Positions 3,762-6,700 of a stretch of DNA of 9,121 nucleotides are shown here, in pieces. The notes under the pieces are model-generated. The model was not told the DNA's origin, searched no databases, and worked only from the letters and a program-made list of their open reading frames with translations. The stretch comes from a virus. Taxonomy: Duplodnaviria; Heunggongvirae; Uroviricota; Caudoviricetes. Both the position numbers and the translations under genes were made by a program. Position 1 is the stretch's first letter. Each line of letters begins with the position of its first letter. The stretch is from positions 1 to 9,121 of the IMG/VR virus record IMGVR_UViG_2645727991_000010. The stretch is one strand, 5' to 3'.

Positions 3762-6700
3762 TCAGCTGATACTGATACCTGCTGTGGATTTTTTCATCAC
3801 CACAACCAGCAGATCGCTGATACTGGTTGTTGGTGTCCAGTTATTCGCTCCTGATGAAGATACGGTGAATGTCAGTGTCAGCGTCCCCTGTCCGGCAGGC
3901 ATATCTATAACTGAGGAAAATACGCCCTGAGCATCCGTCGTTGACTGATTAAAAATCTCCTGACCATTGCGGGTCACTCTTAACCGGCAGGTTGAATACC
4001 AGTATGACTGTTGGTTATTACTGTTGAAATTCTCATGCTTACCACCGCGGAATAACACTGGCGGTATCATGACCTGCCGGTCAAATTTCTGATCATCACT
4101 GATTCTTACCGTGATGGTGCCACTGGCATAACTGTTCGTGCGGGGGAAAGACTTGCTGACCGTTTTGACAATATCGCCTTCAATCTGATTGGCTGACAGT
4201 TTCCCCTTAATCTGACAGTTCTCATTAATCGTGACGTTGTTGAGCGTCCCGGAGTTCGCATTCACACTGCCACTGATATCCGCATTTTTAGCGGTCAGCT
4301 TTCCGTCTGATGTCAGGGAAAATGCCGGAGGATTGCCGCCGCTGGTAATGGTGGGGGCCGTCAGGCGCTTCAGGAACACGTCGTTCATGAATATCTGGTT
4401 GCCCTGCGCCACAAACATCGGCGTTTCATTCCCGTTTGCCGGGTCAATAAACGCGATACGATTGGCGGCAACCAGAAACTGGCTCAGTTTGCCTTCCTCC
4501 GTGTCCTCCATGCTGAGGCCAATACCCGCGACATAATGTTTGCCGTCTTTGGTCTGCTCAATTTTGACGCCCCACATGGCATTCCACTTATCGTTGGCGT
4601 CCTTCCACTCTTTCGAAAACTGCTCCAGTTTGCTGGCGTTATCCTCCGTCAGGTCGACTTTTTCCAGCAGCTCTTTACCGAGATGGGATTCGGTTATCTT
4701 GCCTTTGAAAAAATCCAGGTAACCTTCGGCATCATCGCTCGCCCGACCGACGGCCTCCACGAATGCCGATTTGCCAACGGTGTTCACACTGCGAACGTAA
4801 AAATAATAATCATGGCCCGGTTTGATATTGATACTGGCGGCTATCCAGTACAGCCCCGTGCCAAGGTAGCGGGCTGTGGTTTCAACCTGCCTGATATCGG
4901 TAATCCGCGTTTCCGAGAACCAGAACTCAAACTGCACCGTCGGGTCATATACAGCCAGTTTCGGGACCGCCGTTATCTGAAAATAGCCCGGTGTCAGCTC
5001 AATCCGCGACGGCGCTGCCGGTGCGGCAATCCGGAACGATACCGATGCCGGATCGCCCTGCTGTCCCCACGCATTTACCGCCCGGACCGTCAGCGTGTAA
5101 CGCCCCAGCGCCAGCTGCCTGAAGCGGTATGTGGTTTCTGTCGTCCGGGCCGTGCTGACCAGCCGCTCACTGCCGTCGTCCGCTGTTACGGTCAGGCGAA
5201 GCATAAAGCTCACCCCCTTCACCACCTTCGGCGTGTCCCAGCGCGCCAGCACCTGATATTCCCCGCTGTCTGCGGTGACTTCGGCAGTCAGGTGCTGCAC
5301 CGCTGGCGGCGTGACACCATTCACCGTGCCGCTCTGGTCGCCGTCAAAGTGCGCCCCGTTATCCACGATGGCTTCTTTTTCCGGTACATGCTGCACGGCG
5401 GTGATGGCATACGTGCCGTCGTCGTTCTCACGGATACTCACGCAGCGGAACAGGCGCTGGCGCAGCGTCGGCAGCTTCAGCCCCCACACGCTGTATTCAG
5501 CAACGCCGTCAGGAACACGGCTCACTTTCACCTTCACGCCGTCGGTGACGGACTGAACCTCCACGCTGACCGGATTGCCACTTCCGTCAACCAGGCTTAT
5601 CAGCGTGGTACCGGAGGATGGCAGCGTGATTTCACGGTCGAGCGTCAGCGTCCGGGTCTGGCTGTTTACCGCCAGCACGCGCCCGCCGATGCTGATACCG
5701 GCATAGTCATCATCACAGATTTCAATGACATCGCCCGGCACATGGCGAAGCCCTTCTGCGCCCACGCTGAAGTCCACGGTCTGCGTTTCCAGCAGTTCTG
5801 TTTTAATCAGCCACAGCCCGGCGCGATGTGCCTGCCCCCGGCTGGTACAGCCAAAGGCATCCATCTTCGTGACGTTACGACCGTAACGGGCAATGGCCTG
5901 CGTGTCCTCCACAAGCTCTGTCGCCGTCTCCCAGCCGTTATTCGGGTCAATCCAGTTCACCTCAACGGCATTATGGCGGTCCTTCAGGGCGCTGAAGCTG
6001 TAGCGGAACGGCGCGCCATCATCCGGCATCACCACATTACTGCGGTTATAGGTCCACACCTTATCTGATGGTCGGTCCTGCACGAACGTCAGCGTCTGCC
6101 CGTTCCATACCGGCATACAGCGCATCGCCGAGCAGAAATCACTGAGCACATCCCACGCCTTACGCTGCGTGGTCAGCCAGGCATTACAGGTGATGCGCGG
6201 CTCCGTGCCGCCAAAACCGTCCGGCACCGACTGGTCGCAGTACTGGCCGATGACATACAGCGCCCATTTGTCCACATCCGCCGCACCAAGACGTTTCCCC
6301 ATGCCGTAGCGCGGGTGGGTCAGCATATCCCACAGACACCAGGCCATGTTGTTGCTGTATGCCGGTTTTAACGTTCCGTCCCAGATACCACTGTATTGCC
6401 GCGTCTGCGGGTTATAGTTCGACGGCACCTGCAGAATGCGCCCGCGAAGATGATAATTACGGCTCACCTGCTGGCTGCCGAACTGCTCCGAGTCCACCTG
6501 CACGCCGACCAGTGCCGTGTTCGGGTAGCACTGTTTCACATCGATAATTTCGGTGTATGACGACCAGAGCGTTTTGTTCTGCAGCTGGTCTGTGGTGCTG
6601 TCCGGCGTCATCCTGCGCATCCGGATATTAAACGGGCGCGGCGGCAGGTTATCCACCACCACAGAGGCCAGATACTGCGACGTGGTTTTGCCCTTAATGG

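Follow-up and report, generated by a model that had tools for sequence, protein, structure and literature searches.

A low-GC segment at the 3' end of the tail fibre gene J of a lambda-type prophage raises the question of whether it encodes a receptor-binding domain (RBD) that directs the phage to an outer-membrane receptor other than LamB, the receptor of lambda. The stretch analyzed here (the window) is the whole of the 9,121-bp contig JHSU01000087.1 from the draft assembly GCA_001266125.1, which ends inside L and stf, two repeated prophage genes. All of its genes lie on the minus strand and form the distal part of a tail cluster, comprising the 3' part of L followed by K, I, J, lom, and stf. 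As judged from the open reading frames (ORFs), the gene calls, and the annotation of a syntenic E. coli prophage, the order L-K-I-J and then lom and stf is that of lambda-type phages. The window is colinear with lambda 13520-18461 (93% nucleotide identity) and with prophages in complete E. coli genomes (at most 96.7%). The genes and signals around the 3' end of J are as follows:

3762..7160, minus strand: J, tip attachment or central tail fibre protein; intact ORF of 1132 amino acids plus stop
3725..3744, minus strand: hairpin with a trailing T run, resembling a terminator, after the stop of J and before the start of lom
3096..3695, minus strand: lom, encoding an Ail/Lom outer-membrane protein; 434-type allele (Pfam Ail_Lom, 404 bits)
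From 3031 and running off the contig end, minus strand: stf, side-tail-fibre gene, first 1,010 codons

Terminators are annotated at the same position between J and lom in the records of 434, mEp460, and phage 21. On the plus strand, the ORFs at 3585-3930 encode only 48-57 amino acids.

Architecture of J and its divergence from lambda

J carries the Pfam domains FNIII-A_GpJ, Phage-tail_3, Ig_J, Ig_J_second, Phage_Tail_Tip, and Ig_GpJ_C, all scoring far over their cut-offs. The architecture of lambda-type J proteins is complete, with hub domains, two FNIII/Ig domains, the tail-tip fibre, and the C-terminal RBD. The protein shares with lambda J the Pfam family, the length of 1132 amino acids, and the position of its gene in the order K-I-J-lom-stf.

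The original prediction held that the C-terminal ~150-250 residues of lambda-type J proteins determine receptor recognition and that here the last ~150 residues diverge from lambda J while the rest is nearly identical, and the C-terminal peptide that it quoted agrees with the translation. Pairwise alignment with lambda J showed that the C terminus is indeed less conserved than the rest of the protein, as 922 of the first 950 residues were identical (97%), while the last ~159 residues showed only 39-46% identity. Thus, the divergence covers ~159 residues and not up to 250, since all 50 positions between residues 901 and 950 are the same in both proteins. Identity then falls to 39 of 50 for residues 951-1000 and to 54 of 137 alignment columns past residue 1000. 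The first differing residue of the divergent block is N974, directly after a conserved motif of 11 residues, and blastn homology to lambda stops at window position 4204, with no nucleotide alignment beyond it. The 3' end of J can be divided into the following parts:

4242..4274, minus strand: left junction, codons 963-973 (the conserved 11-residue motif), upstream of the divergent block
3765..4241, minus strand: divergent C-terminal block, codons 974-1132, comprising the distal central straight fibre and the RBD; A8-type allele, predicted to bind OmpC, 46% amino acid identity to lambda
3801..4203, minus strand: smallest segment exchanged in comparison with 434; blastn aligns nothing within it and gives 95% identity on either side
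3765..4139, minus strand: Pfam PF12421 (Ig_GpJ_C), the receptor-binding domain at the C terminus (residues 1008-1132), scoring 124.2 bits where the curated threshold is 26.2
3762..3800, minus strand: right junction, conserved, the last 12 codons and the stop

Residues 1008-1132 match PF12421, and the prediction was thus right in taking the low-GC 3' end of the gene for the receptor-specificity region. The RBD does not belong to the LamB-binding lambda type: close identity to lambda J over residues ~974-1132 was absent, with 46% identity and indels in the loops. It likewise differs from the lambda RBD of PDB 8XCJ/8XCK in its GC content (47% as compared to 54-56%) and, as argued below, probably in its receptor.

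OmpC as the probable receptor

A PDB sequence search found that the last 178 residues of J are identical, at 178 of 178 positions, to chain J of the entries 9WCA and 9WCB, named "A8 gpJ 713". J residues 713-1132 align without gaps to all 420 residues of this chain, and the mismatches fall at upstream positions that are derived from lambda. The name "gpJ 713" follows the work on the lambda gpJ713-LamB complex (PMC11101478). When the PDB was searched with OmpC, three further chains of 9WCB proved to be "Outer membrane porin C". Because it holds gpJ together with three OmpC chains, 9WCB represents a gpJ-OmpC complex. A literature search for a paper citing 9WCA/9WCB found none.

The functional evidence for the A8 allele comes from Brödel et al. 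(Nature 2024, PMC11338833; preprint 10.1101/2022.09.30.509847), who fused natural gpJ C termini to lambda gpJ. The A8 chimera delivered DNA into ΔlamB ΔompC cells in which a plasmid supplied ompC, and the chimera recognized the OmpC of both MG1655 and EDL933. In a panel of 23 OmpC variants, 21 were efficiently targeted by A8, by 1A2, or by both, and two by neither (PMC11338833). Since OmpC is polymorphic and 2 of the 23 variants were not efficiently targeted, the host range is likely to depend on the OmpC allele. We equate the "A8" of the PDB entries with that of Brödel et al. by the shared name and the presence of OmpC in 9WCB rather than by sequence comparison. The window J has the same last 178 residues, domain architecture, and OmpC partner as this chimera. 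The A8 protein, however, is an engineered lambda J with a natural C terminus, while the window J is natural and its upstream part differs from lambda at ~3% of residues.

Genetic evidence is provided by phi330, a natural Stx-converting siphophage, which formed no plaques on BW25113 ΔompC and regained plaquing upon expression of ompC from Plac (PMC12502783). The ΔompC strain that is refractory to phi330 still supports lambda, and spot assays on 54 outer-membrane-protein knockouts revealed a loss on ΔompC only (PMC12502783). The RBD of phi330 (PV189401) is identical to that of the window at 157 of 159 residues, and lom lies immediately downstream in both. In contrast, phi330 carries stx and the rest of its genome is unlike; it belongs to the Stx phages with this RBD type. 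Two phi330 hairpins, E953-S962 and A1015-P1020, have been modelled as contacting OmpC (PMC12502783). By our own residue count, which assumes a 90-residue offset between the two proteins (1132 versus 1042 amino acids), they match a 10-residue segment at 1043-1052 and ANNWTP at 1105-1110 of the window J.

Together, the identity of the RBD to the protein in the OmpC co-structure, the delivery by A8, and the genetics of phi330 argue with high confidence that the receptor of this phage is OmpC instead of LamB and that its RBD is of the A8 type, a reading to which we assign a probability of about 0.92. What was established here is the sequence identity, where the mosaic boundaries lie, the base composition, and how common the allele is; binding to and dependence on OmpC were demonstrated by others on A8 and phi330. 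The proposal that the phage uses a different outer-membrane receptor than lambda is thus supported, and the prophage may make infectious particles. A receptor-prediction preprint from 2026 covers Drexlerviridae-type GpJ only, and the A8-type allele lies outside its scope.

The RBD alleles compared with that of the window are listed below by amino acid identity, with the receptor where one is assigned:

2H10: 100%
CP-1639 and phi330: 99%; OmpC (phi330)
Φ21: 82%; LamB
Stx1_499: 79%
2G7b and Stx2a_2409: 64-66%
mEp460 and 434: 47-50%; OmpC (434)
lambda: 46%; LamB

The nearest distinct natural allele is that of Φ21, with an RBD of 159 amino acids as in the window, 29 substitutions, and a GC content of 46.5%. 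The two longest loops (16 residues) are identical in both. At the nucleotide level the two are far apart, with a dS of 1.7 (saturated) and a dN/dS of 0.08. The native receptor of Φ21 is LamB, and in the laboratory the phage gains the use of OmpC and later of OmpF (PMC11336670). Because the Φ21 RBD is 82% identical and has the same long loops yet recognizes LamB, close relatives can differ in receptor. This relationship is what speaks for an alternative in which the window RBD recognizes LamB, either exclusively or in addition to OmpC, and has departed from the receptor of lambda only in part or not at all, all the more because a single change at the junction of the central fibre and the RBD, I1025T, is enough for Φ21 to gain OmpC (PMC11336670). 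We consider this alternative very unlikely. A8 particles deliver DNA into cells lacking lamB in a manner that depends on which ompC allele the plasmid carries (PMC11338833), and phi330, with 157 of 159 RBD residues in common, fails to plaque on a ΔompC strain that is permissive for lambda, ΔompC being the only 1 of 54 knockouts with a loss. Furthermore, the window keeps an isoleucine (I997) at the position equivalent to I1025 of Φ21. The use of OmpC through a destabilizing I-to-T change of the Φ21 kind was therefore rejected; the retained Ile997 suggests that it is a property of the RBD itself.

The phage 434 also uses OmpC (PMC12502783 and the classical literature). It has the same flanks as the window and a Lom protein that is 97% identical; its RBD, however, is only 47% identical and five residues longer and represents a separate lineage. 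We found no close identity of the window RBD to the 434-type OmpC-binding allele, with 47-50% identity to 434 and mEp460 and the five-residue length difference. Since 434 binds OmpC through a very different allele, OmpC binding occurs in at least two RBD lineages.

How binding might trigger infection can be outlined by analogy to lambda. In the structures of lambda gpJ713 with LamB (Ge & Wang 2024, PMC11101478), the RBD is Ig-like and inserts four bottom loops into the porin trimer; binding spreads the bases of the RBDs, and a twist is relayed up the fibre until the tail tip opens. In J, the last ~480 nucleotides encode the trimeric Ig-like RBD that forms the end of the central tail fibre and that, as an A8-type domain, is predicted to bind the trimeric porin OmpC and not LamB. 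The bottom loops of the three RBDs may enter the porin trimer from its extracellular side, and the spreading of the RBD bases could then be followed by movement up the fibre, opening of the tail tip, and DNA ejection. The triggering mechanism would in this case copy that of lambda. The RBD module, flanked by two conserved sequences, has been shuffled onto different J backbones by homologous recombination.

Mosaic structure of the cassette

Comparison with 434 delimits the module. By blastn, 434 aligns to window positions 5761-4204 at 95.2% and to 3800-2700 at 95.2%, the latter segment spanning the end of J, lom, and the start of stf. As read from these alignments, only the RBD has been cleanly exchanged, and the junctions on both sides are conserved. 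The left-junction motif is present in the window, lambda, 2H10, CP-1639, Φ21, 2G7b, mEp460, 434, and Stx2a_2409, with a single variant carrying N for S, and it is a likely substrate for crossover. On the right side, nucleotide homology resumes at 3800 for 434 and at 3779 for mEp460. Past 4204, homology to lambda does not return, since lom, too, is of another allele: the Lom protein of the window shares 97% of its amino acids with the 434 homologue and 46% with lambda Lom. lom is therefore a mosaic module of its own, adjoining the RBD.

The J backbone of CP-1639, the member of the Stx phages with this RBD type that was aligned directly, shows ~70% nucleotide identity to the window upstream of ~4700 but 93% from 4553 through lom, and the two RBDs differ by only four synonymous and two non-synonymous changes. 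As the backbone is divergent and the RBD is shared, the same RBD rides on different J backbones. Lambda_2H10 (LR595862), in contrast to the prophage contig analyzed here, is an isolated phage; it is colinear with the window over 5753-2700 at 96.5% nucleotide identity, that is, with ~3.5% differences. These comparisons indicate that RBD alleles are old, stable, under purifying selection, and reassorted by recombination rather than generated by recent local hypermutation. DGR-type targeted diversification was considered and rejected, as the 9.1-kb window lacks a template repeat: no second copy of 3762-4250 was found in it, only a two-copy match of 31 nucleotides at 71%. No reverse transcriptase occurs among the neighboring gene calls, which are tail genes, lom, and stf.

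Because the window is an entire contig of 9,121 bp that ends in repeated prophage genes, the mosaic J might be suspected to be an assembly artefact, a chimera of several lambdoid prophages of the draft genome. However, four or more independent assemblies contain the same 1132-amino acid J, and complete genomes as well as the isolated phages 2H10, Turner, and PhiR30_1 show the combination of backbone and RBD in colinear arrangement at 96-97% identity. Together, these data rule out an assembly chimera, to which we leave a practically negligible probability.

Base composition and prevalence of the allele

The composition of the segment was recalculated. The estimates of ~45% GC for 3961-4020 and ~65% for 5041-5100 were reproduced exactly (45.0% and 65.0%), while the ~58% given for lom was slightly too high, at 55.7% over 3096-3695. 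The low-GC 3' end of J was likewise recovered in the sliding-window profile. The region 3762-4250 has 47.0% GC as compared to 55.2-55.8% in the equivalent segment of lambda, and the final 442 nucleotides of J have 47.1% as compared to 57.8% elsewhere in the gene (binomial z = -4.57), ranking 36th lowest among 2,958 windows of the same size within J. The profile is stepped and has no single sharp island, with ~61-66% at 5000-5800, 52-56% at 4300-4900, and 44-49% at 3762-4250. Over the whole contig, 8.3% of 442-nucleotide windows are as low as or lower than the 3' end of J, which is not the lowest point; the minimum of 42.8% lies at 741-1182, in the distal part of stf.

Within the divergent block (codons 974-1132) the GC content is 46.5%, and GC3 is 53.5% as compared to 66.3% in the 900 nucleotides upstream. 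The RBD is rich in Ser, Asn, Thr, and Gln (Ser 13.6%, Thr 10.9%, Asn 6.8%) and poor in Ala and Arg. Its observed GC content of 47.4% compares with 54.2% expected from its amino acids under the codon usage of upstream J and with 58.0% in upstream J itself. About one third of the deficit is thus due to amino acid composition and about two thirds to synonymous sites. Chance or amino acid composition alone as the cause of the drop was rejected, as z is -4.6 and, of the 10.6 points, the amino acids account for only ~3.8. A gene embedded in J or antisense to it was rejected as well, since the minus-strand reading frame already explains the region fully, alongside plus-strand ORFs of no more than 57 amino acids.

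The predominance of synonymous changes, together with the drop in GC3 from 66% to 53.5% across the junction, would fit a recent horizontal acquisition from a lower-GC phage lineage outside E. coli. Low GC is, however, widespread among RBD alleles, which apart from that of lambda span 46.5-50.8%, with 46.5% in Φ21, 47.0% in mEp460, 47.8% in 434, and ~50-51% in 2G7b and Stx2a_2409, while the sequence upstream of these alleles has ~52-55%. It is a trait common to the pool of J RBD cassettes, in which lambda, at 54.3%, is the high outlier. As most J RBD alleles are equally low, the low GC provides no evidence that the phage acquired the segment recently from a foreign source. In addition, the allele is found at ≥99% identity in 1,027 complete E. 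coli genome records. The shared low GC and this prevalence argue that the feature is of long standing and endemic among the lambdoid phages of E. coli, making a recent import highly improbable; the GC island was therefore discarded as a signature of this particular allele or of its import. An AT-shifted synonymous composition was seen in nearly all J RBD alleles and in the distal side-tail-fibre region of the contig. It is conceivable, though unlikely, that the shift reflects a pool of adsorption cassettes passing through lower-GC enterobacterial phages, or an AT richness maintained by selection and not by drift. Equally speculative is a separate idea, that the A8-type RBD is the natural counterpart of the LamB-to-OmpC shift of Φ21 and retains latent binding to LamB or OmpF.

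The 1,027 records stem from a search of 5,426 complete E. coli genomes with the 442-nucleotide RBD segment, in which 465 more matched at 95-99% identity (~1,490 in total). Earlier publications already cover the allele, the receptor and structure that go with it, and the pattern of a conserved N terminus with a divergent C terminus. Andrews & Fields (preprint 10.1101/2020.06.25.171868) noted that the first 982 amino acids of the lambda_2H10 J share >97% identity with lambda, as opposed to 40-60% for the last ~150. The window thus carries a common and characterized allele, an ordinary feature that adds no new biology. Its use lies in annotation: OmpC could be read as the probable receptor directly from the sequence of this prophage and of about a quarter of complete E. 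coli genomes, those with the same allele. This may serve the annotation of host range, the prediction of how Stx phages and other lambdoid phages superinfect and transduce, and the choice of RBDs for engineered delivery particles. Among phages, the RBD occurs at ≥95% protein identity in 44 records, many of them Stx1a- and Stx2a-converting.

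The lom allele and its flanking hairpins

The block that diverges from lambda (~3224-4204) takes in the C-terminal receptor-binding domain of the tail-tip protein J and also most of lom, the Ail/Lom outer-membrane protein gene, because the lom allele too differs from that of lambda. This gene and the two hairpins that bracket it are as follows:

3725-3744, minus strand: terminator-like GC-rich hairpin with a T run, directly after J
3096-3695, minus strand: lom, an allele other than lambda's
3048-3069, minus strand: terminator-like GC-rich hairpin with a T run, directly after lom

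The lom product shares 46% amino acid identity with lambda Lom and 97% with the Ail/Lom protein of phage 434. As judged from the comparison with 434, the receptor-binding domain of J and lom are independent modules. Terminators are annotated at positions equivalent to both hairpins in the records of 434 and mEp460, and this bracketing fits lom being a moron with its own transcription.

The side-tail-fibre gene

1-3031, minus strand: side-tail-fibre gene (stf), homologue of lambda orf-401/stf; it starts at 3031, stays open for 1,010 codons and runs off the contig end

The GC minimum of the contig (42.8% at 741-1182) lies within the distal part of stf (~600-1400), and therefore both adsorption determinants are the AT-richest parts of the window. 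The proximal part is GC-rich and strongly AT-skewed, and it carries families of imperfect direct repeats spaced by 21, 42, or 126 nt (1850-2650), which suggest a fibre shaft with a periodic, 14-residue-type repeat. Compared with lambda, the window has ~300 bp more between the two homology blocks (2124 and 1818).

Contig ends and genomic setting

JHSU01000087.1 is a complete short contig, the two ends of which lie in the tail gene L and in stf, a pattern typical of assembly breaks at sequences that recur in several lambdoid prophages within the same genome. Per complete E. coli genome, the median number of places matching the window is 3 and the maximum is 16. In the closest such genome, AMSCJX03, the homologous tail region adjoins tfaQ, pinQ, ydfK, ynfT, and ydfJ (positions 1-2700 of the flanking sequence L010). 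This setting is the Qin cryptic-prophage neighbourhood, and the flank hints that prophages of the window's type reside there.

Antisense open reading frames

Two long open reading frames lie opposite GC3-rich coding sequence:

4536-6068, plus strand: 510 aa, inside J
1605-2534, plus strand: 309 aa, inside stf

Both are probably codon-bias artefacts; the lambda record annotates a comparable antisense frame, orf206b, within orf-401.
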